A DNA stretch of 64,000 nt from an uncultured virus (IMG/VR IMGVR_UViG_3300021499_000001) (IMGVR_UViG_3300021499_000001); one strand, 5' to 3'; positions 5,641 to 45,800 are shown, counted from the stretch's first letter. Notes: a model not told the origin generated them from the sequence alone. Numbers and translations are program-made.

Positions 5641-5641
5641 T

Positions 5642-24462: not shown

Positions 24463-24501
24463 AAGCCCTCCGTTTATCAAAAGCGGGGGGCTTTTTCTTT
24501 T
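24463..24501 (+). terminator. Intrinsic terminator after sheath gene
   Basis: AAGCCCTCCGTTT-ATCAA-AAGCGGGGGGCTT followed by TTTCTTTT. Confidence 0.75.
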
Positions 24502-24517
24502 GGTATGTTGTCTTGAG

Positions 24518-24751
24518 ATGAAAGATGTGAAGATATACATTGATGATGGTATTTTATATGTGGAGTTTCATGATTTTTATGATCGGGCTGATATATTGAT
24601 TTATGATGTGAAGGGTCGGCTTATGCATGAGGGTAGGGCGGCCGGCTTAAGCGTCTATACACATGACATATCTCGTTATGCAAGTGGCCCTTACATTATT
24701 GTTGTTTTGGTTAATGGAAGAAAGTATAGCAAGGTAGTCACATTGCATTAG
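24518..24751 (+). CDS. Stand-alone T9SS type A C-terminal sorting-domain-like protein (77 aa)
   Basis: ILIYDVKGRLM..THDISRYASGPYIIVVLVNGRKYSKVV matches the IYD-x-G, D-x-S-x-x-x-G-x-Y and terminal K motifs of Por-secretion CTDs. Confidence 0.7.
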   Translation: MKDVKIYIDDGILYVEFHDFYDRADILIYDVKGRLMHEGRAAGLSVYTHDISRYASGPYIIVVLVNGRKYSKVVTLH

Positions 24752-25624: not shown

Positions 25625-26787
25625 TGAGGTTAGAGGATGCTGAAAGCAAGCAGTATGTATTTAGTTTTAGTGGTGCTGATTATATACCGTTTGCTTTTGT
25701 GGGGGGGCGGCTTCGTGCGCTCCCCCTTGTTATGACGATTACGGCTTCTTTCGTTGCTGACCAAGCGCCGGCCTTAACCCTTGGTAGTAAAGTACCATTA
25801 ACGATACGACCCGGTCATGTTACTGTTGCGGGCTCCATTATAGGTGCTGTGAGTGACGTGCATCCTCTTTTTCCATTGACATCGCTATTTGTTAGAGATG
25901 TGCGCTTCGGTACTGATGTTGCGCTAAGGACATATGAATTACCCCTTTTTGATATTATTATTGTTGGTATTAATGAGGTAGGTAGGACAACTGTTGCGAA
26001 GGTTTATGGTGCGCGTATTCAGCAGGGAGGATATACATATTCAATCCAAGATCTTTACACAGAGACAACATTTCAATATAGGGCATTGGATATGGATGAA
26101 CCTCAGGTAGCACCTGTTATGGAAGGTGAGATGATGCATTATATTAATCCAGCCATATTTTTTGACCGGCTTAATAGGATTCCTATCTTAGCGAAGAATA
26201 AGGCGGAGGTTGGTGCTGTATTGGGTGTTATTTTAGCATTACGGGCTAAATTGATAGATATATATGATCGTATTGCTAGGGCTCCCGAGCCAGAGGAAAG
26301 AGAGAAATGGATTAATGAAGCGTCTAAAGTCCAAGAGGAAATTAGGCGTTATGAAGATGCTTTAAATAAGACATTAAGATTGTATTCTCGTACTGTTATT
26401 TCGGGCAACCAATTTGCAGATGCTGTGTTTGGTGATTTAGTGTGGCCTAGAGATTTGCGTTATAAAGAAGTTGAAAAAGATTATATTTACCCGCAACGTT
26501 ATTATGCATCAGTTGGTGATGTGCAAAAAGTTGGCACATATCAATGGAAGTATGAGCATGAATATGATCCGTGGAATGATTATTTTTATTTTGCTCAAAT
26601 GTATATTATGTTATGGAATTCATATGTGAAAGGTGATGTACCAATGCATGATTTATATAGAAAGTGTCTCGACTTTCGTGCACGTTTAGTGTCAGCTATG
26701 TCAATATATGATGAACATCATGGATTATATGAAAATTTATTGAGGCATTATGATGAATTGATAAAGAGAGTAAGGAAGCGCTTATGA
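25621..26787 (+). CDS. Tail-tube paralogue (tube initiator-like)
   Basis: Shares SFSGAD, AGS, IVGINE-G and terminal F-Y-A motifs with the preceding gene; helical C-terminal extension. Confidence 0.7.
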   Translation: MMRLEDAESKQYVFSFSGADYIPFAFVGGRLRALPLVMTITASFVADQAPALTLGSKVPLTIRPGHVTVAGSIIGAVSDVHPLFPLTSLFVRDVRFGTDVALRTYELPLFDIIIVGINEVGRTTVAKVYGARIQQGGYTYSIQDLYTETTFQYRALDMDEPQVAPVMEGEMMHYINPAIFFDRLNRIPILAKNKAEVGAVLGVILALRAKLIDIYDRIARAPEPEEREKWINEASKVQEEIRRYEDALNKTLRLYSRTVISGNQFADAVFGDLVWPRDLRYKEVEKDYIYPQRYYASVGDVQKVGTYQWKYEHEYDPWNDYFYFAQMYIMLWNSYVKGDVPMHDLYRKCLDFRARLVSAMSIYDEHHGLYENLLRHYDELIKRVRKRL

Positions 26788-28760: not shown

Positions 28761-29438
28761 ATGGATCCCAAAGAGTATAAACAGCAGCATGGTGTTGATA
28801 TTTTTGCGGTTGGTTGTAATGTTCTGAAAAATACTTATAAGGCATATTTCCCTATTATGTCTGTTGCTGATCTTACGACTGATGTTACATATAATGACCC
28901 TGCGCGGGTTCATCTATTAAATGTTGTACGAAACCTTGTTGAAAAGATAAGTTTAGGAACGATGACTGATGATGATTTAGTTGCTGTTATGGGTGGTTGC
29001 ATTCATCTTGAAAAGAATATGCAACCTATTGATCCGATGTCTGTAGAGAATGCTATAGCTAAGCTCTTAGCTGAACGGTGGGTTACTGCAATGGGGTTCT
29101 TTGATACACCGCGGGTTTATGTTGCTGAAGTAGATGGGCAAACATGCGATGTTGTTGAAACTGTTTATGCAGGTAAGGTTTATAAAATTTATCTAAAACC
29201 CATATCAGGTGACAATGATCCCCGTATTGAGCATGTATTGAAGGTATTGGGTAGAGAGTATACGATTGATCAGACATATGATGTATTTAGAAGTTCAGTT
29301 GTAAAGGTTGAAGCCGCGCCATTTGGACAGCTGTCATTTGAGGATGTTGAACTTAATGATAAAGTGCTTTTTGCAAGTGCTGTTATGGCATGGATTGAGA
29401 ATACAGGTAGCGTTGAATATGATTATGAAATTATATAA
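28761..29438 (+). CDS. Hypothetical protein, tail assembly chaperone position
   Basis: Acidic 225-aa ORF between tube genes and the first giant protein. Confidence 0.5.
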   Translation: MDPKEYKQQHGVDIFAVGCNVLKNTYKAYFPIMSVADLTTDVTYNDPARVHLLNVVRNLVEKISLGTMTDDDLVAVMGGCIHLEKNMQPIDPMSVENAIAKLLAERWVTAMGFFDTPRVYVAEVDGQTCDVVETVYAGKVYKIYLKPISGDNDPRIEHVLKVLGREYTIDQTYDVFRSSVVKVEAAPFGQLSFEDVELNDKVLFASAVMAWIENTGSVEYDYEII

Positions 29439-29815
29439 TGGAACTTATACGCATCAAGTATGGGGATACCACCTATGAATTTAATTATCCCACCCTATTT
29501 GATTACTACTTGTTTATTGATGGTCAAAAAGTTCGGGTATTTGATCGCCTCGCATTAAGGGATTATAATATTACATCAATTAAGAAGGCGCGCATTATAA
29601 CCATCCTCTTTCGCCACTTCCCTGCCTTTGCTACTGAGGATGAGGTATTTTCCAATATACCGGATGCTGGTGGTTTAATTTATTTGATGCAAGTGTTTGG
29701 ATATAAACCTCATGAATTATTGCAGTTAAATCCTTATGAGCTTGATTTTGCGGTAAGGTTGGCTGAGTATATAAATAATCCAAAACCAGACAATGACAGT
29801 AGTCCGCAGGAATAA
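29438..29815 (+). CDS. Putative tail assembly chaperone
   Basis: TAATG-coupled; FGYKPHELLQLNPYEL resembles chaperone C-terminal (gpT/gpE'-like) motifs. Confidence 0.5.
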   Translation: MELIRIKYGDTTYEFNYPTLFDYYLFIDGQKVRVFDRLALRDYNITSIKKARIITILFRHFPAFATEDEVFSNIPDAGGLIYLMQVFGYKPHELLQLNPYELDFAVRLAEYINNPKPDNDSSPQE

Positions 29816-32800
29816 GCCCTTTCTTTTCCAGAGTGATTTAGCACGCATACGTACAGATGAGACATTGCGCAGTCGTTATGGGTGGGGTCGTACACTTTTG
29901 CGTTTTGGAGTGGCGATGGCTTCCTTTGCTGTTTTATCTTATGGTGCGCGTTCATTATCCCGTGCGTGGCGTGCGTTGGCTACATCTGGAGCATTATCGA
30001 GGAAGTTTGTTGAAGGCGTTAAGGCAGTAAAGAAGTTAGGGCTTGAACAGGGTAATTTACTTGATGTGATATTATCAGTATCTAGGCGTGCGCGTCGGGT
30101 TGCTTATAAATATGTCAAATGGTCACAAGATTATAGAGATGCGTCGCGGCTTCTGCATTTTGGTAAGGCATTAAGGAAAATATGGAGCGGTGGTAAAGCA
30201 TCATTAAAGGGGTTTAGGAAGGCGCGTGAGGCTTATCGGCGGGTTGGGTTACGGGGTGCGTTGTTTGGTGCTTTTTTGCGTGGTGCAGAAAGAGGTGTTG
30301 GATTTGCGATTTTATCTTCGGCTGCTGATGCATTAACACATTCGTTTATAACACCTGCGGATAGAGAGAAGACAAGAAAGTATGGTCCTGTTGCTCGTGT
30401 GAAGCGTTTTTTCACCGATGTTGTCCTATTTAGTGGATTACAAGGACTTTGGGGTGTATCAAAAGTTACCTTTCCTACCTATATACATAGGTATAGCCCG
30501 CAGATACAGCGTTTTCTTACCCGCATTGGGGCACCTACATACATAGCTAAATTTTATGGTTGGAGGCGCCGCTTCTATGATTATCTAATCCGCGCTATAG
30601 AATATAAGCAGAAGTTTACTCAGAAATTGCAGGGTGCTAATATATGGCAGCACATAAAGCAGCAGATGAAGGAGCATCCGGGGTTGGGTGCTGTTGCAAC
30701 CTATTTGCGGGAGCAGATAAGGGAAGCTCATCTACATGCTAAGAAATCGTTTAGGAGGCCGGGTGGATTCCCACCAAGGAGTGGTTATGATACGGTTATA
30801 ACGATGATGAATTATGCGAAGGAGGTTAATGTTAAGGATCCTAAATTTGCAGCGGAGATTGCAGCTCAAGCTGTTGGACGTTATAAGGGTGTGAGTAAGT
30901 GGCGGCGGCTTCTTAATATTGAACGTGAGAGGTTGACTAAGAAGCAGGCTGTTGCTTTCAGGGAGATGCTTGAGAAAATGGGGTTTAGCAAGTCATGGAT
31001 CGAGACATTAAAGGGGGAGGAACGCAAGTTTTATGAGAATCTGTATTACCGTGTGATGAGGGGACCATTGTTCCATGGTCCTGGATGGTTTGAGGTTGCT
31101 GGTCAAAAGTTTTCGCAGTATGAGACACGTTATTTTGTAAAAAGAATTCTCCAGAATCTATATGCTGGTCGATGGAGGGGGGTTACACGCATTTTGGCTT
31201 CTGCGGCAGGCTTAGACCTCTATGCCAACCGCAGACCTGTATTTATCTTCCATCCCACCATGGATATACCAATGAGTGTTCCTATACCGACTGATGAAGG
31301 TGTTCGTATGCTTCGTTTAGTAACCGAACGTGGCAATGATCGGGTCCGTCATGGAATTGTATTCTTACAAAATAAGTTATATAGATTGTCACCGACAGAG
31401 GAAGGTGGTGAGTATTTTGTAGACAGAGTTATAGAAAATGTTAAATTATATGAAAGCCCGGCTTACAACATATTAAAGAGGGAGTTAACGCAGTATTATA
31501 TCAAGCAGAGGCGGCGCACAGATGAAATAGGTTTGCGTCCACCTGGTGAATATGTTAGGGATATAATTAGGAAACTATCACAGGGTGTTGATAAGGCTAG
31601 TTTAGAAGAATTGGTTAATGTGTATAAATCAACTCGTTCGACGGCTCATATTATATTTGGTAAATTGTTATCGAAGAAGGAGGTTCGTGAGGTTGCATCA
31701 CAGATTTTGGAGCAATTAGGTGCGAGTAGAGCGCAAAGAATCTTGCAGATGGATGAGGCATCATTAATCAGGGAACTTGAGAAGGTTATAGAAAAGCCTG
31801 CACAGGTAACGGAGCGGCTTCGTAATAGATTTATTTATCTTGTAAATGCGGCACGTAGCAAAATGAGGACTATGAAGGATCTTTTGAATCAGGAGTTTAT
31901 AGGTTCTGGATATGCAGAAGCACGGGCTAGACATGTTATTGAATCGTTCTTAATTGAGCAACATTTGACACCAGAAATAAGGGCGAAATTCTTTAGCAGG
32001 CTTGCTGAGGAGCAGTTGATCGGGAAGTGGATAAGGAAGCCGGCTTATACGCATTTCTTCAAAGCATTAGCAGAGCTGGCGCCTGTGGAAATGGATGCAG
32101 AAGCTCTCAGATCTACTATAAAGGGCGCGCTTAATGATATTGTAGTCGGTTGGAAAAAGTTACCTACAGTTGATCCATTTAGGCCGATATCTGCTTTGTT
32201 CCAGTATGGGGGATTAGGTATCCATAGATTATTTGAGCCTACCATAGAGGGTATACGGGTAATGGGTACTACAGTACCATTTACTGTTGTTAGAGAAGGT
32301 ATGAGTCCATTTAAACGGTATACGGTAACAAGTTTATTGTTTTCCCATCACTTACGACGTATATGGGGGTTTATGGATTATGTAAGCAAAGCTCCTCGCA
32401 AGTTTCCTATTATCAGACATTTGTTAAGGCGATTGGATCCTAGGTTGGCTGATACGGCGCATATCTTTCCATTTGAAACGAATACTACTGGTTGGACGGC
32501 TTCTGATATGATAAAGAATTTGTGGAAGCCGGCGGCTACATTATTAGCATTAGGTGTAGGTTATAAGGCTGTTGATACATTCTTTGATGAGAGTGGTTTA
32601 TTTGAAGGAACTGCATTAGGAGAGGGGTTGACACCTGCTATACTGGATGCATATGCATTAGGTCGTCTTTCCTTGGCAAGAGTATTGGATATTGCAGGTG
32701 TAACTGATGCAGCGCGGTATTTAGAGGGATTAATGCCGGGGTCTATGACATGGTTACCGGGTGCACTATATGGCGTATGGAAGTTTGCACCTGCAGGGCC

Positions 32801-35624
32801 GGCGGCTTCCGCTATGGGTGCATTAATAATGGGTGCAGTTAATAAAATGTTAGCGCCATTTTTGCCTGACTTAACAAAGAGTTACGATCAGCTGAAGAGG
32901 ATATATAGAGGTGAGGAGTATGTGCCTGTAAGGAGAGCAAGGTATTGGCCTTTATCTTTGACACCATGGGAAGGTTACGACATTGAATATTGGCGGCCTT
33001 CTCTATGGTTCATTGTAAGACAGCAGGCAAAATATACTCCTGATATAAGTGGTAGCAAGATACAGTCCTTATTACAGGGTGACTGGTTGTTTGGTTATAA
33101 TCCATTGCGTATATTTGATCCATATGCTAAGGAAAGACAGCATTATTTCTCTAGGCCGGCGCCTCTGACACAGTTACCATTTTGGGATGTGCCTGTTATA
33201 GGACCATTTTTAGCTTTGACTGTTGGACAGGTATTGAAACCACAACAGATGATGCATACAGCCTTTTTGAAGGAGATTTACCCTGGTGAGTATGGTGTGC
33301 CGAAGGGTGAGGTTGTCACACCGGAGGATTTATCTAATCCTGATCAGTATGTATCAGCTATGCAATCTAACCAGGCTGTTGCAATGTTGATGAACAGATA
33401 TACGGGGCGGGCTTACAGGCATGTCACAGGGGATATGCTTAATAGAGGTATAACGGAGACTCTTTATAGGACGATGGAGATGGCGGGTTTAAGAGGTTAC
33501 TTGACATCGTTATTATTAGGAACACAGACACCGCTTAATTTCAGTAGGTACCTAGAAATGTATGGTGAGAACGAAGGGTTTTTATCTGAATACTGGAACA
33601 TGGAGCTTAATGATGTAGCAGGTGGATTGTCTGAGATGATAAGAAGATTTAGACCCGACAAGCGGATAAATACAGTTAACCCTATTCCTAACCTTATGGC
33701 ACAGTTTTTACCTGAAGGGGAGTATGGTGGTAGCGATTTCTTGCATGGTGACCCTTATACTAAAATTCCTATGGGTTTCATAAGATTGCCAGGGACTGGA
33801 TATGAAGCAACACATAATGTAATGCATACATTTCCTGCATCGTTAAGAATGTTGGGTAAGACAGTAACAGAAATAAGGGACATTATGGCTGGGTGGGAGG
33901 ATATTATTGAGGAGAGAACGGAACGGGAGCTAAATCGATTTTATGATGCTAAAAAGATTGTGCAGGGGTTGCTTGAGATATCAGGACAGAATGTTGAGAT
34001 GGATGTGCAGATTTACGATCCATATAACAACATTGTGGGTACTGTTGATGCTGTTGTGAGGAGAGGGCGATTTAGACAACCTATTATTATACGTCCTGTT
34101 AGTGAGGAAGAGTTTAGGGAGCTTGTTGCCCCGAAGGAGGAGCATGCGAGTCAGGTGAATTTTGCTATGAAGTTTTTTGGTGCGAAAACAGGTAAATTGA
34201 TTTATGTGAATGTGAGGTCGCCTGAGCAGATTAAAACCTACACCATCTTTTTTGATCCATCGAGGTTCAGAGAAGATATAAGTGCGTTAAAAAAAGCGAG
34301 AGAGCAGGCTGGTGAGTTATTGAGGGCAGGAGCTGTTTTTGATTATGGTCGTAGCTATAGCTGGTTTGATAGATATAGGATTTTAGCTGATGTTGCTCCT
34401 TTATCTGATCAGTATAAGCAGGCGCGTGCTATTGTATTGAAGCAATTGCAACAGGGATTTTTGCCGCAGGAGTTATGGGATGAGGTACATGAAATTGAGC
34501 GAAGGCGGCTGCTTCAACTTTTAAAGTATCCTATGTACGTGCGCCGATTTACTGGTGAAAATGTTGTTGAAACAGTACAGAAGTTGTTACACCCGCCCAG
34601 ACTTACGGGTCGTGAGTTATCGCTATCTTTTAATCCATATTTAAAATCGCCTGATGAATACAGTTTACCAGAGAGGATTGTGGGTAGTATCTGGGAGACA
34701 TTTACACATTTACCAACACCTTATAATAGGAAATTCTTCTTCCAGTACTCACCATCGGAGATTTATAAGTACTTCCATTTATATGATAGGGAGTATAAAG
34801 CATGGACGCGGCCTGTCGAGGATTGGGTTAAACCACAGGTTAGAACGATGCTCGCTTCCCAGGGCATTATGGAGGGTGCGGCTTCATGGGCTACAGCAGG
34901 TTATGCTATCGGTAGATTATACGGCGGGCTTATAGGTGCAGTGGCTGGATCCATATATGGATTGATACCTAAGCCGCCGATGATACCGGGGGATGTGGAG
35001 AAGGCACGCGAGGCTTATTCGTATTATGATAAATTGAAATATGCACGTAACATGCAGTTTTATGTTATGACAGGTAATAGAATATATGAGGAGCGTGCTG
35101 AACGGACCTTATTAGGTGCGAAGAACTTACGTGATTATGTAAGAGCATTACCTCGTTTTGAGCGTCCATTTACTGTAGCGTTTATGAACATAACTGATGA
35201 GAGTGAAAGAGAAAGGATAAGGCAGATTATATCACCTGAGGCGCGTCGTGCTCTAGATGCAGCATGGGCAAGACGTGAATTGCGGTATAGTGTTGAAGAG
35301 GGCGGTTATGAGGAGGTACCGAGAACACCAGCTAATTGGGCTGGTTGGATTTTTGCGATACCTGATGAGGATATTTATGTAAAGGAGCTTGAGCAGCGGG
35401 GTGTTGATCCTCTAGATTTTGGTTATGGTTATCATGGTCAGGCAGCTGCTGTACGTCGTCTATCTGAAGATTTTGCTATACCTGATCAAACTGTAGACGT
35501 CGTAAATATTATGGATGTACAGGAAACGATAGTAAGGTCATTGCAGGCGCAGGGTATTAGAGCCTCAGTGTCCATCATGGGATTTGATAATAGTAGAAGG
35601 GTTGATGTTGTTATTTATAAATAA
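29793..35624 (+). CDS. Giant virion protein (1943 aa) at tape-measure position with degenerate Cas4-like PD-(D/E)XK domain
   Basis: Basic N-terminus; Gly/Ala hydrophobic segments (ATAGYAIGRLYGGLIGAVAGSIYGLI); IVGTVDAVV..HASQVNFAM..GKLIYVN near 33990-34260. Confidence 0.6.
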   Translation: MTVVRRNKPFLFQSDLARIRTDETLRSRYGWGRTLLRFGVAMASFAVLSYGARSLSRAWRALATSGALSRKFVEGVKAVKKLGLEQGNLLDVILSVSRRARRVAYKYVKWSQDYRDASRLLHFGKALRKIWSGGKASLKGFRKAREAYRRVGLRGALFGAFLRGAERGVGFAILSSAADALTHSFITPADREKTRKYGPVARVKRFFTDVVLFSGLQGLWGVSKVTFPTYIHRYSPQIQRFLTRIGAPTYIAKFYGWRRRFYDYLIRAIEYKQKFTQKLQGANIWQHIKQQMKEHPGLGAVATYLREQIREAHLHAKKSFRRPGGFPPRSGYDTVITMMNYAKEVNVKDPKFAAEIAAQAVGRYKGVSKWRRLLNIERERLTKKQAVAFREMLEKMGFSKSWIETLKGEERKFYENLYYRVMRGPLFHGPGWFEVAGQKFSQYETRYFVKRILQNLYAGRWRGVTRILASAAGLDLYANRRPVFIFHPTMDIPMSVPIPTDEGVRMLRLVTERGNDRVRHGIVFLQNKLYRLSPTEEGGEYFVDRVIENVKLYESPAYNILKRELTQYYIKQRRRTDEIGLRPPGEYVRDIIRKLSQGVDKASLEELVNVYKSTRSTAHIIFGKLLSKKEVREVASQILEQLGASRAQRILQMDEASLIRELEKVIEKPAQVTERLRNRFIYLVNAARSKMRTMKDLLNQEFIGSGYAEARARHVIESFLIEQHLTPEIRAKFFSRLAEEQLIGKWIRKPAYTHFFKALAELAPVEMDAEALRSTIKGALNDIVVGWKKLPTVDPFRPISALFQYGGLGIHRLFEPTIEGIRVMGTTVPFTVVREGMSPFKRYTVTSLLFSHHLRRIWGFMDYVSKAPRKFPIIRHLLRRLDPRLADTAHIFPFETNTTGWTASDMIKNLWKPAATLLALGVGYKAVDTFFDESGLFEGTALGEGLTPAILDAYALGRLSLARVLDIAGVTDAARYLEGLMPGSMTWLPGALYGVWKFAPAGPAASAMGALIMGAVNKMLAPFLPDLTKSYDQLKRIYRGEEYVPVRRARYWPLSLTPWEGYDIEYWRPSLWFIVRQQAKYTPDISGSKIQSLLQGDWLFGYNPLRIFDPYAKERQHYFSRPAPLTQLPFWDVPVIGPFLALTVGQVLKPQQMMHTAFLKEIYPGEYGVPKGEVVTPEDLSNPDQYVSAMQSNQAVAMLMNRYTGRAYRHVTGDMLNRGITETLYRTMEMAGLRGYLTSLLLGTQTPLNFSRYLEMYGENEGFLSEYWNMELNDVAGGLSEMIRRFRPDKRINTVNPIPNLMAQFLPEGEYGGSDFLHGDPYTKIPMGFIRLPGTGYEATHNVMHTFPASLRMLGKTVTEIRDIMAGWEDIIEERTERELNRFYDAKKIVQGLLEISGQNVEMDVQIYDPYNNIVGTVDAVVRRGRFRQPIIIRPVSEEEFRELVAPKEEHASQVNFAMKFFGAKTGKLIYVNVRSPEQIKTYTIFFDPSRFREDISALKKAREQAGELLRAGAVFDYGRSYSWFDRYRILADVAPLSDQYKQARAIVLKQLQQGFLPQELWDEVHEIERRRLLQLLKYPMYVRRFTGENVVETVQKLLHPPRLTGRELSLSFNPYLKSPDEYSLPERIVGSIWETFTHLPTPYNRKFFFQYSPSEIYKYFHLYDREYKAWTRPVEDWVKPQVRTMLASQGIMEGAASWATAGYAIGRLYGGLIGAVAGSIYGLIPKPPMIPGDVEKAREAYSYYDKLKYARNMQFYVMTGNRIYEERAERTLLGAKNLRDYVRALPRFERPFTVAFMNITDESERERIRQIISPEARRALDAAWARRELRYSVEEGGYEEVPRTPANWAGWIFAIPDEDIYVKELEQRGVDPLDFGYGYHGQAAAVRRLSEDFAIPDQTVDVVNIMDVQETIVRSLQAQGIRASVSIMGFDNSRRVDVVIYK

Positions 35625-38600
35625 TGGCAGTTATAAGAAAAAAACATACATACCTGCGTACTTTTACACGCAGGAAGGAACGTGAGAAGGGTAATCGTTT
35701 TGCGAAATTTGGACTGGGGGTTGCTGCTCTTGTACCTATTGTTTATTTGATCAAGGGACGCGGTTTTGAGAGGTTACATGACTTTCTTAAGACCTTTGCC
35801 GAGGCTTCATATAAGAAGGAAGCGCGGGCTTCAGAAGCATCTCTATGGGCGTATGGGCCTCTAGATAAGATAAAAAAAGCTTTCATGGATAATCCATTTT
35901 TGTCAGTGCTGGGTACTGTTACCAAAAAGGAAGCACAGGGAAGGTCTGTAAGGGAGGTATTGAATAAATTAAAAGATATTGTTGAGCTTCTGCGTGAATA
36001 CTATTCAGTAGCTGAAATAAGAAAGTTGTTTAATGAAGACATTGTTCCTTATGCTGATAAAGCATCCAAGCTAATTGTTGAGGAGGAGAAACAATTATTG
36101 TATAGGTATCAGTTGATGTTCGAGCGGGCGCTTCAAATTCTCACAAGGAGGATTAATGAAAAAGGATGGTTTCCATGGGACCCATTTCATTTTCGTCTTC
36201 TAAGTAAGTATTTACCACATAGCTATAAATTTGGATTATTTTATGGTATGATGCCGAGTTTTTCGGCGCCTCTATTTGAGATTTCTACAGCTGGTGGACA
36301 GTTTGCACAGATTTTTCAAAGGGAGATAAAGAATCTATCAGAAAGTGAGGTTTTACTTGGCCAACATATTGAGCAGGTTATAAAAGATTATGTAAACAAG
36401 CATGTAGTTGTGAACCCTGAGTGGGAGCTTGCTGCTAGTGAGGTATTTAAGCATCTATCAGCTGAGGAGCATTTACAGGTTCGAAATCTTGTTACAAGGA
36501 TTACAGAACAAGTAGCTAAGTGGTTGCATCGTCATGCTGGTATTGATGCAACAGATCTACCTGATGTACAAGTTGTTATTAAGGCGCAACGTTATTATGA
36601 CGTCCCTATATTAGTTGCGCAGCTATCGGTTGTCGATCTGCGTGGTGTTAAAAGAAGTGTAGAGATTAAGCTTGGTGTTCCTCAGAAAAGTGGATTGATG
36701 GCGGCTATAGGAAATTATCCAACAGCAAATGTCAGATTTGCTCAGGGGAATAGAGTAAGGTCGATCTTTTCCTTGAAGCTGGAACGCTTGGGCGAGATGT
36801 TTGAGCATGCCTTGAATGATTTGTACGAAGGGAAATCAGAAGATTATGTTACTAGGCGCATTCATAGAATCATTGGGCGATATGACTTATATGGAACAGG
36901 ACGTAATGATAAGGCGTTCCAGTTAGTGCATTCTATTGTTGATAAGGACTTTAAAGATTATGCGGCTTATAGTGCTAAAAAGAGGTTTTTGAAGCGCGCT
37001 GCTGAATTAATACTTGGAGTGAGAAAGGGTAAGTATCGGCTATTTATGGATGCTGAGTGGGTCATGGCTGGTATATCGAGTACTGGTACACAATATGCTG
37101 TAACTGAATCCCGCCGGCGATTAATATGGAGTTTTGCCATACAGGTTTTTGATGATCTTGGTAATGAAGTTGATAAATTAGTTGTATTCATCGATCCGAA
37201 AACGATAAGCGATGAATTTTTCATGTCGCAGGTACGTCGTTTCGGGTTATCAAAAGCAGCTGCTGAGGAGGCATTAAGGGCAGTTAGAGGACGTGTTGCA
37301 ATGCCTGCTGGATATGTCAGGGTTGGTAGTGAGATGGAAGCTAGCCGGCTTATATGTAAGAAAATAAAAGATATAATTAACAAGTATGGTAAGGACGATC
37401 TACTTGTTATGGGTAAGAACTTTTGGAGCTCGGAGGTTGCGCTATTGGAGCGGGCCTTCAAGGCTGATAGCAGCATCTTGAATTATATCAAAAGAAAATT
37501 AGTTGATATAGAGGATATATATAGGTTAGTATATGGTGCTAAGGCTATTAATAGATCGTTAAGTGTTGAAGCTATTCTCGATTACGTAAAGGTATCAGAT
37601 GAAGGATCGAAATTATTGGGCCGGCTTCTTAATTATGAACCAAAAGTTGAGGTCCAAGCATTTGCTAACTTAGTTAGATCACTACATTTTGGTGAGCAGG
37701 ATAACAGGATTGCATATATCCTATCAAAAATTGCGGAGAGCATGGTTAATAATGATCCTGAGCTACGTGAGAGAGTACTAAGGATTTATGATATTGTAGC
37801 GAAGTCGCAGGGGGCTGTGTTATCGTTTACTACACAACAGGAGTTCATGCAGCAGGCTTACAATTATGTAAAGGAGCAATTGAAATCTGTCGGTGTTGGT
37901 TCGCCTAATGCTGCACGTAAGTGGCGTTTTGAGTATCCATTTAATCCAGCTGATTGGGTTCCGTTATTTGTTCCAACCTTAGAAAAACAAAGGTATCAGT
38001 TGGGCCGCGGCTTACCTCTGTCAGAGGCGTCAAAAAGATTGCTTGAAACTCTGAAAAAGGAGTATGCGAGGCGCGTATTGGGGTTGGGTGAGGCTGATAT
38101 CAATTATTTAGGGCCGGCGCTTATTTCTATGCCATTTAAGAGATTCCTAGAACAGCAGATGTTATATAATGTCCGTAGTGTATTTACGATACCTGTCTTC
38201 TCAACATTTTTCCCATTTGCTGGCGAAGGGCACATGTTTATACATAGGCGGCTTACTGAGCTATCGACAGTAGTTCAGGAGGTAATTAGTCAGAAGATCC
38301 CGATAAGTAGGTTAGAGAATATGGATGCTCGTATGCAGTTGTGGACGAAACTGTTTGAGTCTGCTATGGAGGCAATTAAGACATCGCCTAGGTTGGGTCG
38401 TTTAATAGAAGAGCGTTTTAATAATGATATTGTAAGATTTTTAAGAGCATTAGATTTATCTATTGTAATAGCTAGACGTCAAGGGTGGATTAAAGATTAT
38501 GAACGTTTCGCGGATGTATTAACACGGTTCTTCCCCGAATTTCCCATTAAGCGTTTTGCAGGGGCAGCCATAGGTGGGGACTTAAAGGGGCTTACTATTA

Positions 38601-41600
38601 AACAATACCTTGCTATGCGGGCTAAGGGATTGCAAATCCCTGGTATAGATGTAAGTGATATATTGAAAAAGATTGTGGGAGAGAAGTATGGGGATATACA
38701 TCCATTACATGAGTGGTTGAGTGATGATCTATTATTAAAGTTTGGTCTTTTGGATGAAGTTGTAGAAATGGGGGATGCGCGGGCTGCATTGTTAAGGGAG
38801 GTATTTGATCGAGTTGCAAAATCGGGGCTTCACCTTACCAACCCAGAACAGTACATCAAGTATGGTACTTTTGTAATGACAGACCGGCTTCAGCTTGGTG
38901 ATAAGGTTGTAAAAATTGGTTATAATGGTAAGTTAGTTTTTAATAAGGTAATTACATCTTATGATCTTACAGGTACGCCTTCATTGGATTTTTCGCTTAC
39001 CTATGAAATAATATTACCAACTCCACTTAAATGGGTTACATATTATCAAAAAGGTATGGGGACAACACAGCGCTGGTCCTTAAGCCAATTTCCATATTAT
39101 CTTATAGAGCCAGCGCGGTTTATGGAGCGTGGTGAATTGGGCATTTTTATAGAGACGGAGATGACGCGTCTAAAGGAGGCATTGATCAAAAAGTATGGTG
39201 TGCAAGAAGCCGTCAATGTTATGTCAAAGATGACAAAGGACCTCAATGATTATATGAATAGAGTAGTTAATTACGCTATTAAGGAGCACGGGCTTCCCAT
39301 CAAACTTACCAGTCCCTTATTTATGTTCAATCCCAAAATGATGGCAATAGAGGGCAATTACGATTTATTTAATACATTGACAACAGAACAAAAGGGATTG
39401 TTGTGGACGGTATTCCTAGAGGGTTTACCTGAGAAGGTAGGAAAGATCGGTAGATATCCAAGCTTATTTGATTATCTTGAGGCTAAATTCAAAGAACATG
39501 GTGTTGTTGTGACTCCGGAAGATAGAAAGATATTTAGAAGATATGTACAAAAGCAGTATGCATTATATAAGAGCAAGAAGATAAGTGAAAAAGAATTCTT
39601 TGAGAAGGTTTTGTTAAAAGATATTGCTGATGAAAGGATACGGAATTGGTTTAGCAGATTATATTATGGGGATGATAGGGAGCAACTTGCGCGCTTATTT
39701 GACATATATCAGATAAAATTAGGCAAAAGAGTTGTTGAACTTATTGGTTTAGGCCGTCATAGTCCCTTTGGTTTAGGTGATACGGCTCTAACTAGTACCT
39801 ACAAAAGTTTTGTGCGCATACCGATGCAGATGTATTGGGATATTCATCGCTGGCCTCATTTAGAGGGTATGGCTCAATTTGTTGATGCCTTTCAGGCTCA
39901 GAATCTACCTATCTATGAGACTCTTCTTAAAATGGCTGATATGCTGAAGATGAGTCAGTCATCTATTGATGAGTTAGTGAAGGCAGGGGATATTTATGCT
40001 GTACCGGTGCGGCGCTTCTTCGACTTTGTGCGCAAGCACATGAATCTTCTTAGATTAGTAAGGGAGGATATATATGTACCAGAAAAGATATTAGAGGAGG
40101 CTCATGGTGATATGGTTCAGGCTGTTCAGATGATGCTTGATTTAGGTGTGTCATTAACGGATTTTAAGGAGAATGCTATAAAATTTGAGGGCGCTCAGCT
40201 TCGTGCACAGGTTGCTAAGGAGGTGCAGGATTTCCTGAGGCAGATATTTGAGGAAGCGCAGGGGAAGCGTGTTGTTATTGATGTTGGTAGGGCGATGTCT
40301 GTTTCCTATAAGAATCTTGAATCGATGATTGGTCAGAATGATGCTATTATTAGGGATCTTATCAAATATTTAGAAAAGATGGGTTACAACAAGCTGAAGT
40401 ATATACCATTAGGAACGAGGGAGTTTTGGGATTTATCATTCCACCAGATTGGTAAAGATCAGGTGATTGTTGAGCCTCAGGTTAAGAAATTATTGCAGCT
40501 AATGGCTTCGATTGCATCGATTAGAGGTAAGGTACAGGCAACGGGTGTGCCATCGGCGCAGGTTAAATTTGAAGAAAGGAATGTATTTTATAAGCAATTT
40601 GTTGATTATCTTGGTTCTATAGCAAGTAATTTTATAGGCCGACAGTCCTTGTGGGCGCGGACTGCTGTGACACATCTTCCTGGTGTTGAAGGTGTTGGGC
40701 TTCCGTCCTTCTTGCTTTTTAATAAGTCGCGGCTTCTTGACACAGTTGTATGGGAGCCATTTACGACCTATGTTGATGCTTCTGTTATTGAGAATTTGAA
40801 AGGTATGTTGGAAGCCGCCGGTTTCTCCAAAGAATTTATCGATGCTTTTTATAAGGGCAGTCCTAATGTAGCATTTTTAGGCATGCCTGGGCGTATGCCA
40901 TTCCATCCTGGTATGGGGTTAATAGGATTGATAAAGAGTTTGACTCAGCAGCAGAAACAACGTGTTTCGTCTGTTAGCGACGCTGTTAAGATATATATGG
41001 ATCCGTTATTAATAACGAAGGTTCTATTAGGTGACTGGGATACGGATAGGTTGATGGCGTTACTGACAATGACGTCTCCGAAGGGTGCTGGAGACGTAAC
41101 AAGGATATGGAAGTGGGTCTATGGTTTATCAGATCAGGATGTTGCATTTCTTATGTCATATGGTAAGTTTAAAGCTGGTGATAGAAAGGTGATAGGTGAA
41201 TTACAAACATTTTTTACATCTGTTTTTGAGAAGATGACGAAAGAACAGAAGGAGGCATATATACAGAGCAAAGAGTTTGAGGATATCCTCCATAAGAGAT
41301 TATCAGCTGTTGTTGCAAAGATGAAGGAGGGATATTTGAGTTGGTTTGGTAAATCTGAAGCAGAGGAGTTGAGTAAGCGTATTGAGTTTTTAGTGACTGG
41401 TGATGTGACGAAAATACCCACAACAGAAGGTGAGGTTATTTATTTACCGACTATATTAGCTCAGATGCGTGGTTATACGATGAAGATTGAGAAAATGTGG
41501 CCATTTATACAAGAGGCTAAAGAGATTGCAAGAAAGGAAGGAATTCCATTCAAGGAAGCATTAGCTAAGCATATGGCTGATATTTTTGCGAACAGAGAGC

Positions 41601-42691
41601 TTAGGAATGTAGCAGGTACGTCAATGGCTGGTAAAGTTGATGTGATAAGAACTGGGTATGCATTATTATTGCAACATATGTATTTAATGAAAACAGAAGG
41701 GGTTTCATATCAAGATATGAGTAGAATTATGGGGTTAAGTATCCCAGAAGCATTTGGTCAAGTATTTGATAAATGGATGGCAGCGGGTGCTGAGGGACAG
41801 AAGATGATTCTAACATTTGAAAGGGAGATACTTGATAAAGTATTGAAGATGAAACGAGGTGGCTCTCCGGAGGTTATGGCTGAAGCAATAAATAATCTTG
41901 CTAATGAATTGCTTGAGTATAGTAAGGTTTCATCATCTGTTGCAAAGAAAGGACATGAATTAATAGATAAGTTTGTTGCAGAAATTGATTGGGAGAAAAT
42001 GGGATTGAAGCCACGCGATGCTTTGTATATGATGGGATGGTTGTTGAGGAACACACAATGGGCTATCCGTAATTCCAGTTATCTTGTTACGAGGCAAGCG
42101 ATTAACAGAGGTCTTATTGAAGCATATGCAATGTTTGCATCTCGTTTGCTTAGTCAACCAACAGGTCCTACGGTAGGCCCAACATTGTTAGATGCATTAT
42201 CGAATGAAGTGCTCAGGGGTATGGCAAAGGAGCCAAAGCCATTGAATGAATTACTTGGTGAGCAGACAGCAAATATGAGATTTAGGGAGGCGCTGGCGGG
42301 CTTCCTTATAAAAACATTTGATAATTTATCTAAATCAAGAAAGCATCGGTTATTGTTGGCTGGTGCATTAGCTGGAATAGCAGGATATATATTAAGCGGG
42401 CCGAAATTAAGAGGAGATATATTTTCATTTGGTATTGATTTAGGCACAGTACATGGATTAGAGCCAAGTTTTTTTGATGGTAGATGGACATATCCTGAGC
42501 TGCCTCGTGGGGAGGATATAAGAGGTTTAGAGAATCCATATCATAAGAGGAAGATTTATATTCTACGTAATATAAGGCGTAGGAACCCTGCATTATTTAA
42601 TGAGTTAAGGAGGCGCGGTATAATTCAAGAGTGGGAAATGTCGGCGCCTTATGATTATCCACATAGAGAAAGGAAGGTGATATACGTATGA
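35624..42691 (+). CDS. Giant protein (2355 aa): putative single-chain two-barrel (virion) RNA polymerase with DEDDh exonuclease-like domain
   Basis: FMDAEW/GKNFWSSE/HFGEQD (aa 476-693); LKWVTYYQKGMG (K1136, K1143); GRMP (R1757); IYMDPLLITKVLLGDWDTDRL (D1804, D1806, D1808). Confidence 0.65.
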   Translation: MAVIRKKHTYLRTFTRRKEREKGNRFAKFGLGVAALVPIVYLIKGRGFERLHDFLKTFAEASYKKEARASEASLWAYGPLDKIKKAFMDNPFLSVLGTVTKKEAQGRSVREVLNKLKDIVELLREYYSVAEIRKLFNEDIVPYADKASKLIVEEEKQLLYRYQLMFERALQILTRRINEKGWFPWDPFHFRLLSKYLPHSYKFGLFYGMMPSFSAPLFEISTAGGQFAQIFQREIKNLSESEVLLGQHIEQVIKDYVNKHVVVNPEWELAASEVFKHLSAEEHLQVRNLVTRITEQVAKWLHRHAGIDATDLPDVQVVIKAQRYYDVPILVAQLSVVDLRGVKRSVEIKLGVPQKSGLMAAIGNYPTANVRFAQGNRVRSIFSLKLERLGEMFEHALNDLYEGKSEDYVTRRIHRIIGRYDLYGTGRNDKAFQLVHSIVDKDFKDYAAYSAKKRFLKRAAELILGVRKGKYRLFMDAEWVMAGISSTGTQYAVTESRRRLIWSFAIQVFDDLGNEVDKLVVFIDPKTISDEFFMSQVRRFGLSKAAAEEALRAVRGRVAMPAGYVRVGSEMEASRLICKKIKDIINKYGKDDLLVMGKNFWSSEVALLERAFKADSSILNYIKRKLVDIEDIYRLVYGAKAINRSLSVEAILDYVKVSDEGSKLLGRLLNYEPKVEVQAFANLVRSLHFGEQDNRIAYILSKIAESMVNNDPELRERVLRIYDIVAKSQGAVLSFTTQQEFMQQAYNYVKEQLKSVGVGSPNAARKWRFEYPFNPADWVPLFVPTLEKQRYQLGRGLPLSEASKRLLETLKKEYARRVLGLGEADINYLGPALISMPFKRFLEQQMLYNVRSVFTIPVFSTFFPFAGEGHMFIHRRLTELSTVVQEVISQKIPISRLENMDARMQLWTKLFESAMEAIKTSPRLGRLIEERFNNDIVRFLRALDLSIVIARRQGWIKDYERFADVLTRFFPEFPIKRFAGAAIGGDLKGLTIKQYLAMRAKGLQIPGIDVSDILKKIVGEKYGDIHPLHEWLSDDLLLKFGLLDEVVEMGDARAALLREVFDRVAKSGLHLTNPEQYIKYGTFVMTDRLQLGDKVVKIGYNGKLVFNKVITSYDLTGTPSLDFSLTYEIILPTPLKWVTYYQKGMGTTQRWSLSQFPYYLIEPARFMERGELGIFIETEMTRLKEALIKKYGVQEAVNVMSKMTKDLNDYMNRVVNYAIKEHGLPIKLTSPLFMFNPKMMAIEGNYDLFNTLTTEQKGLLWTVFLEGLPEKVGKIGRYPSLFDYLEAKFKEHGVVVTPEDRKIFRRYVQKQYALYKSKKISEKEFFEKVLLKDIADERIRNWFSRLYYGDDREQLARLFDIYQIKLGKRVVELIGLGRHSPFGLGDTALTSTYKSFVRIPMQMYWDIHRWPHLEGMAQFVDAFQAQNLPIYETLLKMADMLKMSQSSIDELVKAGDIYAVPVRRFFDFVRKHMNLLRLVREDIYVPEKILEEAHGDMVQAVQMMLDLGVSLTDFKENAIKFEGAQLRAQVAKEVQDFLRQIFEEAQGKRVVIDVGRAMSVSYKNLESMIGQNDAIIRDLIKYLEKMGYNKLKYIPLGTREFWDLSFHQIGKDQVIVEPQVKKLLQLMASIASIRGKVQATGVPSAQVKFEERNVFYKQFVDYLGSIASNFIGRQSLWARTAVTHLPGVEGVGLPSFLLFNKSRLLDTVVWEPFTTYVDASVIENLKGMLEAAGFSKEFIDAFYKGSPNVAFLGMPGRMPFHPGMGLIGLIKSLTQQQKQRVSSVSDAVKIYMDPLLITKVLLGDWDTDRLMALLTMTSPKGAGDVTRIWKWVYGLSDQDVAFLMSYGKFKAGDRKVIGELQTFFTSVFEKMTKEQKEAYIQSKEFEDILHKRLSAVVAKMKEGYLSWFGKSEAEELSKRIEFLVTGDVTKIPTTEGEVIYLPTILAQMRGYTMKIEKMWPFIQEAKEIARKEGIPFKEALAKHMADIFANRELRNVAGTSMAGKVDVIRTGYALLLQHMYLMKTEGVSYQDMSRIMGLSIPEAFGQVFDKWMAAGAEGQKMILTFEREILDKVLKMKRGGSPEVMAEAINNLANELLEYSKVSSSVAKKGHELIDKFVAEIDWEKMGLKPRDALYMMGWLLRNTQWAIRNSSYLVTRQAINRGLIEAYAMFASRLLSQPTGPTVGPTLLDALSNEVLRGMAKEPKPLNELLGEQTANMRFREALAGFLIKTFDNLSKSRKHRLLLAGALAGIAGYILSGPKLRGDIFSFGIDLGTVHGLEPSFFDGRWTYPELPRGEDIRGLENPYHKRKIYILRNIRRRNPALFNELRRRGIIQEWEMSAPYDYPHRERKVIYV

Positions 42692-42855
42692 AAATTATAG
42701 TTAGAGTACTGCCAAATGCAGATATTGTTCGTGTTGAAGCGGCGATACGTAATGCTTTGATGGCATATGATTTAGATGTGCGGTCAATACAAGTGGTAAC
42801 AACGGCTTTTGGACAGGAGGAGTATGCCAGAGGACTCGAAAAAGCCGAGGCTTGA
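42688..42855 (+). CDS. Small hypothetical protein (55 aa, not in ORF track)
   Basis: ATGA-coupled to the 2355-aa gene, AAGGTG upstream; MKIIVRVLPNADIVRVEAAIRNALMAYDLDVRSIQVV... Confidence 0.6.
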   Translation: MKIIVRVLPNADIVRVEAAIRNALMAYDLDVRSIQVVTTAFGQEEYARGLEKAEA

Positions 42856-45800
42856 TTACAGGACAGCTATTATAGGTACCGTTCCGGTGATTGTTACAGA
42901 TTTTAGAGTTGTTGAGAATTTTTCCTACCAGCAGATACAGACACTACGTATGGATAATAATGTTATTTACCAGATACCCGGAAGGAATTTGTATGTTATT
43001 ATTGGATTAGAGTTTCCTGATGGTTATTCCATTAATACAGGATTGCGTGAGCTCCATGCTATGATGTTTCTTGCTCCCATTGTACCTATTTATAGTCCGT
43101 GGCTTAATGACATGGTCATTGCATCATTTGATCAATATAGAGGGCTTGCTGAATTAATGGGTGTTAATACAGATGTAAACATTTATGCATTGCGTCGTTT
43201 AACAATGAGATCCGTTGAGTCGCCTTATGCTATTGGTGTTGAGATGGAGATTGCTCCCATGGATTTAGATGCGGCGCGGCTTAAGCCCCAATTCCTTGTG
43301 GATGAGGAGGCAGCGCGGGCTAAATCTGAGTTTATAGCGAGATTGTTTGAATTATATGAAACGATGAAGAGAAGTGAGGACCCGCTGGCTTATTTGGATG
43401 GCTTTACATCTATCTATAATGATTACAAGAGGGCTGTGGCTAATAAGGTTGTCGACTTCCTATGGCAGTCAGAATTATTTAAAAGATGGATAAGCATAAT
43501 GTATCCTGAGGGTGATAAGTCACTTTTACCAGTTCAGGGGGTGCGGCTTAAACGGCAGCTTGGTATATGGAGACAAACGCCGTTTGCTAATATTGTTATT
43601 CATTATCTCCATATGGCTGATGATATCGTATCATTGCGAGATGAAATACATAAATATGTTTCAGATGTGGCTAGTAGTACAGCAAAGATGATCCGTGATT
43701 ACGTAGCTGATTATGAACAAATTCAGCAGGTTGGCGCGCCTCAACGATTTTTCCAAGTATTGCAGACATTATACAATAGCATTAAGGGTGGCATACGTAC
43801 TCGTATTGATAGCTCATTGATGGGTACTATAGCATTTGGCAATCAGATAAGGGAGATGTTACTTGAGGTTGCGTTACGCATGGATAATGGGCAGAGAGGT
43901 AAATATACTAATTACGTGCAGAGAATTCTATCTCTGACGGCAGGGCCTAATCTAGTAGTCCCTGAGATGATGATGGAGGGTGAATCAGCTATTGTCACAA
44001 TGTCTGATTTTCTGACCAGATTTTTTGCAGAATTAGGTAAGAAGTTGGATACGGATTCATACAAAATTTTCGTTGATTTGTTCGCTGATGTTATGTCTGA
44101 ACGTATTGCGTATTGGGAGTTATTCTCAAAGGTGATGAAATATGAGACCTTTGATTTTGGTAAATATCGTGCTACTCCAACCAGATGGGAATATACTGTG
44201 ACTAATAAATTCGTACCTCTGAGGATTGGTGATGCAGTAGCGCCCTTGTTGCAACATCTTGGTACTGATAGTCCTATATTTAGGGTGCAATATGCATGTG
44301 GTGATGGCCTAGCCATAAGGCAATTGAAACAGTTAAGAGATGATGTTGATAAGGCTGTGCAACAGATAAATGAAATAGGGTCATATTTTCCTTGGATTAC
44401 AAAATATATAGAGCCTATAATATTATCCTCAACGGACGGCTTAGTTGAATTTCTGGGCATGCAGCATGCTGTTTTAGATTCGGTAAGTATTAATCCGATG
44501 GAAGAAGCCGCGATGGTTGCTGAGGCTACATGTACATTTGTTGCTTCTGATATAACGATTTTTGATTACGAGCAGTTTGAGTTTGCTGATACTGTTGGTG
44601 CCAATAATTTATCATGTCTATTATTATTTTATGCATTGCGTAAATGGTACCAAGAGATTTTTGGTAAAGATCTTCCTCCGAGCGGTACTATTGCAGAGAC
44701 AGTACAGCCATTAAAGGAGGGTGAAGATATTTCGAAGCTAAGGGTTCCGTTTAAACTGTTTGATGTTATGGATTCACAGAATGTAACTAAGCGTGCATTT
44801 CAGTATGCCATGATATTGTCTAGGGCTGAGAATCAGAATTATTATAATTTCACTATATACAATTCGGATAAAAAGGCTGTATATGCATTGAATGAGGGTG
44901 TAATTACACATATAACTAGTAATTTGGTTGATGGTTATATAGTTCGTGTGAAGAATGGGGATTTTGTAACAGAGTATAGGAATCTAGAGAAGTTGGCAGA
45001 GGATATTAAGCCGGGCGAAAAGGTGTTAGGTGGACAATATTTAGGGGAGGCGCGCTTCTTTGCTAGTGGAACATATCCAAAAGAGGTTGAACCGGGTATT
45101 CTCTATAATAAAGTTAAAACATCTGGTCCTGCACCTTATGGAGTATTTGTATTATTTATGTATAAAAATATCCCATTGGACCTAGAAATTTATAAAGGTA
45201 AGGAGGTTTTTGAAAAAGCAGCCAATATATCTGCGCCCACAGATATATATGCATATTTTTGGACACATACTAAGGATGATAAAATAACATGGGCTGGGCA
45301 TACCTATGATGTGAAAAATAATCCCTATGTCCAAGGTTATGTAAATAGTGTCTTAGGTGGGATACCTATTTTAGAATCAATTTCGAATCGTATTTTTGAT
45401 GAGAAGACATTTGTTGATGTGCTTATCCGACTGCTTATGGAAAAATGTATGACGTGTGTATCATCATTTGATATCGCAGGCTTGGAGCAAAAGCTTGCGA
45501 ATGAGTTAGGTATGGAGCCGGCTTCTGCAACTGATAGAGCTGTTCCAACACAGGAGGAATATGTGCCTGTTCTTGGCCGTCCATACTTTACCCACCCATC
45601 ATTAGAAGAGATGAAACTACCAGAGCCGCAATTGCCTCCTAAGGTAACTCCGGCGCCAGAGGAAGGGAAAATAGAAGTACCTGAGAAGAAAGTAGAGAAA
45701 CCGCAGCCTTCTGCACCAAAAAAATTACCTGAGGAAGCCCCGCCAGTGGAGGTGCCGCCTAGTGAACCACCAGTGATAGAAGAAGGTGAAAAAGAGGAGG

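Follow-up and report, generated by a model that had tools for sequence, protein, structure and literature searches.

Two-barrel polymerase families share little beyond the region of the DxDxD motif, and two-barrel enzymes include archaeal PolD and the RNA-dependent QDE-1 (Chaban et al., 2024, PMC10770324). In the siphovirus P23-45, the tape measure protein gp96 carries an active virion two-barrel RNA polymerase (RNAP) that was found through its DFDGD motif alone, and gp96 has been proposed to enter with the DNA and to transcribe the first phage genes (Chaban et al., 2024). The same source places the polymerase of gp96 at the N-terminus (DFDGD at residues 779-783 of 5002 amino acids, aa); a long ruler and a metallopeptidase come after it. 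Here we analyzed a 64,000-nucleotide stretch of DNA from an uncultured virus (IMG/VR IMGVR_UViG_3300021499_000001; hereafter the window), in which an open reading frame (ORF) of the tail operon of a contractile-tailed phage encodes a 2355-aa protein, P0001. Our analysis leads us to favor, with a confidence slightly above even, the reading that P0001 is a very rare version of the tape-measure-linked virion RNAP known from P23-45, and as such a multi-domain nucleic-acid enzyme and not an inert ruler.

P0001 resembles gp96 in being a giant product of the tail module that takes the tape-measure position, has hydrophobic segments and can be recognized as a putative polymerase essentially only by its DxDxD region. 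Compared with the published description of gp96, it differs in its contractile-tail setting, in the placement of the candidate core (aa ~1090-1810 of 2355), in an exonuclease-like domain that precedes this core, and in its DWDTD loop; in addition, P23-45 has a second, non-virion RNAP (Chaban et al., 2024), whereas none was found in the 176-kb relative G002 (see below). An earlier note on this DNA had set the locus apart from the podoviral cases; a virion RNAP fused to a tail tape was already known from P23-45 (Chaban et al., 2024). A second system of comparison is the crAss-like virion RNAP of Cellulophaga phage phi14:2, gp66 (GenBank gp077), which is likewise a single-chain protein (~2200 aa) flanked by giant structural proteins and has YRIPNQ ... 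GSDFDIDK in the same order and spacing, but which belongs to the podovirus-like crAss lineage, is a head cargo protein, and has no noted exonuclease-like domain. The family of SPbeta YonO, 0305phi8-36 orf99 and the RNA-dependent RNA polymerases of eukaryotes (RdRP; PF05183) is also single-chain and two-barrel; unlike P0001, the YonO-type enzymes are ~800-1250 aa long, non-structural and encoded outside the tail module. In our literature searches for tail-module or tape-measure two-barrel polymerases in myoviruses, the studies of P23-45 and of the crAss phages were all that came up; the family lists in the supplement of PMC10770324 lay outside these searches and could already include such families.

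The ORF proposed in the earlier note is open throughout, and the residue numbers given there (K1136, K1143, R1757 and D1804/1806/1808) are all correct, as is the placement of LKWVTYYQKGMG (aa 1135-1146), of GRMP (aa 1756-1759), and of IYMDPLLITKVLLGDWDTDRL, which ends at nucleotide 41053 and includes DWDTD (aa 1804-1808). This is a genuine gene, and it is under strong purifying selection: compared with its 92%-identical ortholog L002, the ratio of nonsynonymous to synonymous substitution rates (dN/dS) is 0.062 overall, 0.063 in the barrel region, 0.020 at the C-terminus and lowest, at 0.018, in aa 461-710, the exonuclease-like part. A spacer protein would be expected to be less constrained than a dN/dS of 0.06.

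To identify homologs, aa 1000-2149 were used as a phmmer query against 1.84 billion representative proteins. This search found three proteins, the query's own cluster included, among them the 2268-aa P0003 (E 2e-20, 22% identity) and P0004, a 671-aa piece (E 1.5e-11). In the resulting alignment of four sequences, two of them only 22-25% identical, R1757, P1759, Y1791, D1793, P1794, L1795, G1803, D1804, D1806 and D1808 are invariant (four of four), as are P1686, G1687, L1693, P1694 and S1695 upstream of R1757. Conservation of DxDxD in homologs was a check named in the earlier note, and the motif reads GDWDTD twice, GDYDGD and GDFDAD, the middle aromatic being only W, Y or F. A bare D[FYW]DxD is not rare, since six ORFs of at least 80 aa carry one in the 176-kb relative G002; the DWDTD block exceeds chance because it is conserved among divergent homologs, not because of the motif as such.

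Around this motif, P0001 is colinear with E. coli beta', with GRQSLWARTAVTHLPG..GLP, GRMP, DPL and GDWDTD corresponding to GKRVDYSGRSVITVGP..GLP, NRAPT, HPL and NADFDGD, a match at the level of motifs only; in a pairwise alignment the order and spacing of the four elements are as in E. coli RpoC. A reading of 'DTD' as motif C of a family B DNA polymerase was rejected, as the homologs have DYDGD and DFDAD. The two-barrel RNAP reading of the earlier note is sustained at the sequence level in its beta' half (RxP ... DPL ... GD[WYF]DxD conserved), while the beta lysines are unsettled, and a single-chain two-barrel RNAP is the best, partly supported, reading of the conserved block in this giant protein.

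The portal, gp145-like and hub genes tie the phage to the lineage of 0305phi8-36. The window is ~92% identical to positions 95,025-158,908 of a 175,796-bp IMG/VR contig (G002) rated 100% complete, and by these sequences the phage is a ~176-kb myovirus distantly related to Bacillus phage 0305phi8-36. Only six phage records matched the portal and hub queries, representing five phages: 0305phi8-36 (two records), WH1, Edson, KLEB27-3 and Moorella phage MTATph1. The myovirus structural operon recognized in the earlier note is indeed present, with terminase, portal, a capsid-like protein, sheath and, downstream, baseplate J, all in one direction. Its order is sheath, tube-like paralogs, two small ORFs, the gp145 homolog, the 2355-aa gene, hub-like ORFs and baseplate J, and it includes four giant ORFs in succession (1943, 2355, 1784 and 1337 aa). 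In 0305phi8-36, the tail chaperonins are followed by gp145 (1930 aa), gp146 (2537 aa) and the gp147 hub. Contrary to the earlier note, which had placed the gene between tape-measure-like and baseplate genes, the gene itself fills the hypothetical tape measure slot, that of gp146, although P0001 has no BLAST similarity to gp146. Like P0001, gp146 follows the gp145 homolog and precedes the hub, and it is Cys-free; its record names it a 'hypothetical tape measure protein' and notes its detection in virions by mass spectrometry, and the tape-measure assignment rests mainly on tail length (Hardies et al., 2007, PMC2147016). P0001 likewise lies after the tube-like and putative chaperone genes and before the hub, has a length of the order that a long tail would call for, and has hydrophobic segments.

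In three of these relatives the slot protein provides a bridge to canonical beta'. In these Bacillus jumbo myoviruses, gp034 of vB_BauM_KLEB27-3 (2434 aa) has homologs, 27% identical, in vB_BceM_WH1 (gp095) and Edson, of 2515 aa; all are Cys-free and annotated 'structural protein' or 'hypothetical protein'. They read SAKMDMSGRF.I.GV ... NRYPTIN ... KADYDGD or KADHDGD, and a six-frame search of the whole genomes with PF00623 (RNA_pol_Rpb1_2) gave a single match per genome in KLEB27-3, WH1 and Edson, each time inside the slot gene (E 7e-5, 5.4e-4 and 9.4e-4; 16.7-20.2 bits, below the 25.3 cut-off; protein-level E 0.015 and 0.09). These proteins share with P0001 the slot position, a similar size and a beta'-like NRYPT...AD(Y/H)DGD block; they differ in their C-terminal domain and in a barrel nearer to canonical beta' (SAKMDMSGR), and they have no BLAST-level similarity to P0001, full-length hhalign being not significant. 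In position and in weak profile similarity they are nonetheless the closest relatives of P0001, and in function gp96 is the closest known system. Our searches by topic and phage name, covering titles and abstract starts, returned no paper naming gp034-type slot proteins as polymerases, and none of the papers listed for the phage names contained KLEB27-3, WH1 or MTATph1. Barrel against barrel, hhalign aligned P0001 to the gp034 family with P=0.0037 over 66 columns (RMP on RYP, GDWDTD on ADYDGD), the gp034 family to a proteobacterial beta' profile with P=5.8e-4, and a merged seven-sequence profile of both families to the beta' profile with P=3e-4 (80 columns, score 31.5; maximum of 40 column shuffles 16.8, reversed profile 22.6), all of these being inflated figures, as the regions were picked by motif and the profiles are very shallow (effective number of sequences ~1.5-1.8). 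The extension of the alignments to the RxPT and (H/D)PL blocks came unforced.

The distribution of the other candidate polymerase in this lineage is complementary. PF05183 (YonO/RdRP-type) was found in one of the five related phages, 0305phi8-36 (E 1e-20), in a 1246-aa ORF that corresponds to orf99 of Hardies et al. (PMC2147016), and not in KLEB27-3, WH1 or Edson, nor in either of the two records of our phage (G002 and G003, E<=1); MTATph1 has neither a PF05183 polymerase nor a DxDxD slot protein. Among the genomes examined (five relatives and this phage), PF05183 and a DxDxD slot protein are thus mutually exclusive, a pattern that, in small numbers, agrees with a role of the slot protein as the phage's own polymerase. 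Family searches of G002 recognized a family B DNA polymerase, primase-helicase, ribonucleotide reductase, ThyX, dUTPase, RecA, RNase H and a ligase OB domain, and no RNAP or sigma factor; they also gave no second large D[FYW]DxD protein or other RNAP family, a weak negative in that the PF00940 control matched nowhere.

The earlier note had overlooked an N-terminal DEDDh exonuclease-like domain. DEDDh exonucleases are defined by the motifs ExoI (D-x-E), ExoII (N-x(3-4)-D/E) and ExoIII (H-x4-D). In P0001, these read FMDAEW (D476/E478), GKNFWSSE (N599..E604) and HFGEQD (H688..D693), with VD628IE supplying the aspartate before ExoIII; in P0003 the counterparts are AIDTEY, GKNFNLADV, HDALID and FDIEP, so that all DEDDh motifs are present in order and conserved between the two proteins. 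A language-model search with aa 440-720 returned viral RNase_T/DnaQ-like clusters as nearest named neighbors (score 0.93, recognition 2904); clusters bearing RNase_T made up 23 of the 30 matches (15, 6 and 2), and the ten best matches carrying a family all belong to one family or clan. In addition, the MTATph1 slot protein matches PF00929 (E 5.4e-5). The cropped region gave no Pfam match at E<=10, and hhalign placed its motifs in register with those of E. coli DnaQ (P=0.16) and RNase T (P=0.39), neither being significant; against the exonuclease region of MTATph1 and gp146 it gave no motif alignment (P=0.33). The MTATph1 slot gene (L099 15513-22869) is split by a transposase gene, leaving a 1309-aa N-terminal ORF with a significant RNase_T domain and small C-terminal ORFs that keep the conserved last ~60 residues.

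The beta-type half of the putative core is less clear. Of the two lysines named in the earlier note, K1143 is kept in P0003 and K1136 is replaced by R. A more beta-like stretch lies 40 residues upstream and reads 1092-GDKVVKIGYNGKLVFNKV...DLTGTP; neither is statistically secure. Aligned locally with E. coli RpoB over its full 1342 residues, aa 1080-1160 found their best match on the catalytic-lysine strand (...DENGTP), and the pairing of GDK...NGK with RpoB, in a region picked by motif, has an hhalign P of 0.03. Under MAFFT, K1097, N1101 and K1103 are kept in P0003; P0003 has its own GDK...NGK nearby, yet MAFFT pairs KIGYNGK with KVQFNHK. A second barrel in the upstream gp145-like protein or in the gp034 family was also considered and rejected, as hhalign to beta and beta' gave P values of only 0.19-0.59.

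Taking these elements in order, P0001 would comprise a membrane-type helix, a DnaQ-like 3'-5' exonuclease-like domain, a very diverged core predicted to fold as a single-chain two-barrel polymerase, a hydrophobic segment and a C-terminal anchor. In the core, a beta-like element around GDK1094...NGK1103 would be combined with a beta'-like barrel (aa 1672-1815) bearing R1757-x-P and the putative metal triad D1804/D1806/D1808. The C-terminal domain (aa 2264-2355) likely serves as an anchor at the tail tip or hub; at their ends, the relatives' slot proteins are laid out alike but have a different C-terminal sequence. Cysteine is nearly absent, with one residue in P0001 and none in the 1943-aa upstream neighbor or the relatives' slot proteins, compared with 5-12 in the hub proteins. 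By analogy with P23-45 gp96, this nearly Cys-free protein would be assembled into the particle with the tail, would be expelled through the tube on contraction, and would be inserted near the envelope by its hydrophobic segments, where it may transcribe the first phage genes into RNA from the entering DNA without the host RNAP.

Several results weigh against this reading, in addition to the inflation of the hhalign figures. The family is tiny (one 12-member cluster and two singletons); alone, it matched the beta' profile only over a 9-residue DxDxD stretch (hhalign P=0.054). In a pairwise test of the barrel region against E. coli beta', 118 of 300 shuffles scored as high; this test lacks power, because the proven phi14:2 enzyme is likewise at shuffle level (99 of 300). 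When aa 1670-1820 were aligned locally with the whole of RpoC, the barrel was missed (464 of 500 shuffles as high). On the beta side, the RpoB alignment has a score of 41 that 31 of 500 shuffles reached, which is marginal, and P0001 and P0003 align over aa 1040-1320 with a score of 40 against a shuffle mean of 36, which is not significant. Searches of Pfam, PHROGs and NCBIfam with the protein and its crops gave no relevant match, sequence and profile searches of the PDB at E<=10 gave no polymerase, and PF00623 was silent in the G002 and G003 genomes at E<=1. Homology to phi14:2 gp66 was not found (BLASTP best E 0.91, hhalign probability 0.1%), and PF05183 does not match P0001, with 0305phi8-36 as positive control; by these comparisons, P0001 belongs neither to the crAss gp66 family nor to the YonO family. 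AlphaFold2 gave no fold evidence (mean predicted local distance difference test score 34.7 for aa 1040-2150 with a four-row alignment, 40.4 for aa 1665-1850), its confidence being low because the alignment is too shallow. Finally, no long, repeated phage-specific promoter word was found in the intergenic DNA of G002. The isolation of the family was also seen elsewhere: tblastn against 50,697 phage records gave no match, word-indexed protein searches returned only the own cluster, scans of IMG/VR (with P0001, the family alignment, P0003 and P0004) and of one metagenome returned only the ~93% orthologs L001 and L002, and a language-model search with aa 1000-1999 returned only unnamed viral clusters at low recognition (1560).

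With these results in view, the reading that best survives beside a polymerase, though we judge it unlikely, is that P0001 is a plain tail tape-measure or ejection protein of a long-tailed myovirus, devoid of polymerase activity, whose DWDTD block would bind a metal or a partner or would be left over from an enzyme now dead. Such a protein would fit the absence of any profile or structure match to a polymerase and the mostly helical, low-confidence AlphaFold2 output for aa 1040-2150, as well as the hydrophobic segments near both ends and the conserved C-terminal domain, which are features of tape measures. It would also fit the slot, annotated as a hypothetical tape measure in 0305phi8-36 from tail length (Hardies et al., 2007), where gp146 lacks DxDxD, which means that the slot does not require a polymerase and also counts against the favored reading. 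However, the block holds four beta' elements in order, which is more than an acidic patch, PF00623 matches nothing in the relatives' genomes other than their slot proteins, and a spacer would not be expected to be this constrained over all 2355 aa, least of all at the level of the exonuclease-like part. P23-45 moreover illustrates that tape measure and polymerase are not exclusive (Chaban et al., 2024).

We consider it improbable that P0001 is instead a two-barrel nucleotidyl transferase other than an early-gene RNAP, for instance a DNA polymerase or primase that proofreads with its fused exonuclease, or an enzyme that copies RNA templates, perhaps serving genome ends or DNA entry. The fusion of a polymerase with a 3'-5' exonuclease is typical of DNA polymerases, and no part of P0001 is under stronger constraint than the exonuclease-like domain. 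PolD and QDE-1 are themselves two-barrel enzymes (Chaban et al., 2024). Nevertheless, the phage already has a family B DNA polymerase, primase-helicase, RNase H and ligase OB domain, the motif context (NRxPT, aromatic DxDxD) is typical of RNAPs, and the complementary distribution is with YonO-like RNAPs and not with replication genes. Least probable of all is a non-virion RNAP acting inside the cell, its late expression with the structural genes being a genomic accident: the phage is uncultured and known from genes alone, and P23-45 and many other phages have non-virion two-barrel RNAPs (Chaban et al., 2024), but the proteins at this position in the relatives are listed as virion or structural components (for gp146 from mass spectrometry, for WH1 gp095 and KLEB27-3 gp034 from annotation), the gene runs in the direction of the tail genes and almost abuts them, and the protein is almost Cys-free, with terminal hydrophobic segments and the end architecture of the relatives' slot proteins.

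Returning to the virion RNAP reading, a broader proposal, which we hold only tentatively and with less than even confidence, is that throughout the ancient 0305phi8-36 lineage of long-tailed jumbo myoviruses the slot encodes a tail-delivered, Cys-free fusion of a 3'-5' exonuclease and a single-chain two-barrel RNAP that is interchangeable with a free YonO-like polymerase. Injection through a contractile tail would then be old and recurrent, and the DWDTD family, with its own anchor, would be a separate, previously unseen branch, possibly the first RNAP with a built-in proofreading-type exonuclease. What this analysis adds is the assignment of the gene to the tape-measure slot of the 0305phi8-36 lineage, the connection by way of the gp034 family, the complementary occurrence of YonO-like enzymes, a second candidate for the beta motif and the support for the exonuclease domain. 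If the protein is active, tape-measure-linked virion RNAPs would no longer be confined to one thermophilic siphovirus, P23-45, but would also occur in jumbo phages with contractile tails, the unannotated 2,300-2,500-aa 'structural proteins' of the cultured Bacillus phages KLEB27-3, WH1 and Edson would gain a function, and the start of transcription in phages with no recognizable polymerase or sigma factor would be explained. The fusion raises the question of whether some injected RNAPs proofread or process nucleic acid ends, and the complementarity with YonO-like enzymes offers a simple way to study, by comparison, how phages exchange their transcription enzymes. The polymerase idea can be tested directly in the cultured relatives.

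Table 1. Candidate polymerase gene, its features and neighboring genes in the window (nucleotide positions counted from the first letter of the window).
Feature	Residues	Nucleotides	Strand	Basis
Candidate tape-measure-slot exonuclease/two-barrel polymerase (P0001)	1-2355	35624..42691	+	2355-aa ORF, 1 Cys in 2355 residues
N-terminal hydrophobic, transmembrane-like helix	26-44	35699..35755	+	Kyte-Doolittle scan
DEDDh (DnaQ/RNase T-like) exonuclease-like domain	~470-700	37031..37723	+	Motifs, language-model neighbors
Beta-type lysine motif, best candidate, GDKVVKIGYNGK (K1094, K1097, K1103)	1092-1103	38897..38932	+	RpoB match
Beta-type motif of the earlier note, LKWVTYYQKGMG (K1136, K1143)	1135-1146	39026..39061	+	P0003 keeps K1143, G1146
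Beta'-type barrel candidate, GRQSLWARTAVTHLPGVEGVGLPSFLL ... GRMP ... IYMDPL ... GDWDTD	1672-1815	40637..41068	+	Conservation and hhalign
GRMP, R1757-x-P1759 strand	1756-1759	40889..40900	+	Counterpart of beta' NRAPT, gp034 NRYPT
DWDTD, putative Mg-binding aspartate triad D1804/D1806/D1808	1804-1808	41033..41047	+	Motif and conservation
C-terminal hydrophobic segment	2243-2259	42350..42400	+	Same layout in gp146, gp034, gp095, MT_31
Conserved C-terminal domain, GDxFSxGxxxGxVxGxxPSxxDxxWxxPELP...	2264-2355	42413..42688	+	Densest invariant columns; dN/dS 0.020
Two small ORFs (225 and 125 aa) in place of tail chaperonins gp143/gp144		28761..29815	+	Position only
1943-aa Cys-free giant, homolog of 0305phi8-36 gp145 (virion protein)		29793..35624	+	blastp 1e-16 gp145, 1e-15 MTATph1 CDS0026
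Two giant ORFs (1784 and 1337 aa), counterpart of 0305phi8-36 gp147 baseplate hub		42809..52176	+	blastp, domain matches

Among the neighboring genes, the 1943-aa protein is also homologous to KLEB27-3 gp031 and gp033, the gene being split there, and its 116 invariant positions are rich in R, W, P, G and H; it has no family match and is better conserved than the slot protein. Downstream, residues 685-748 of the 1784-aa ORF weakly match M23 peptidases, and the 1337-aa ORF combines a lysin-like region with a pair of transmembrane helices (1192-1238). The hub thus seems to be split in two here, whereas it is a single gene of 1900-2330 aa in 0305phi8-36, KLEB27-3 and MTATph1.

Upstream, the large terminase (5552-8098, plus strand; 848 aa, phrog_2 E 9e-30) has a weak Hint/Vint match at residues 192-270 (PF14623, E 3.3e-4, below the cut-off); because this match sits between two terminase stretches, the gene may hold an intein. 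Right after the sheath, three paralogous ORFs of 285, 388 and 649 aa (24767-28733, plus strand) match phrog_9206 'major head protein', a label that is probably misleading, as their position is that of the 0305phi8-36 tail tube and tube-paralog genes gp140-142. A 109-aa ORF (24422-24751, plus strand) overlaps the end of the sheath gene and matches DUF3244 (E 2e-6) and, weakly, Por_Secre_tail, which is typical of Bacteroidota and odd beside the Bacillota-phage affinity of the structural genes.

In the intergenic DNA of G002, the commonest words are long Shine-Dalgarno strings (AAAGGAGG in 15 of 55 regions, AAAGGAGGT in nine), and TATAAT-like words occur too, which hints at a host with strong Shine-Dalgarno usage and at host-type promoters for many genes. 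G002 also carries, among its early or replication genes, a TnpB/IS605 OrfB-type gene with Cas12f1-like TNB and OrfB_IS605 domains (L007 14811-16052, minus strand).

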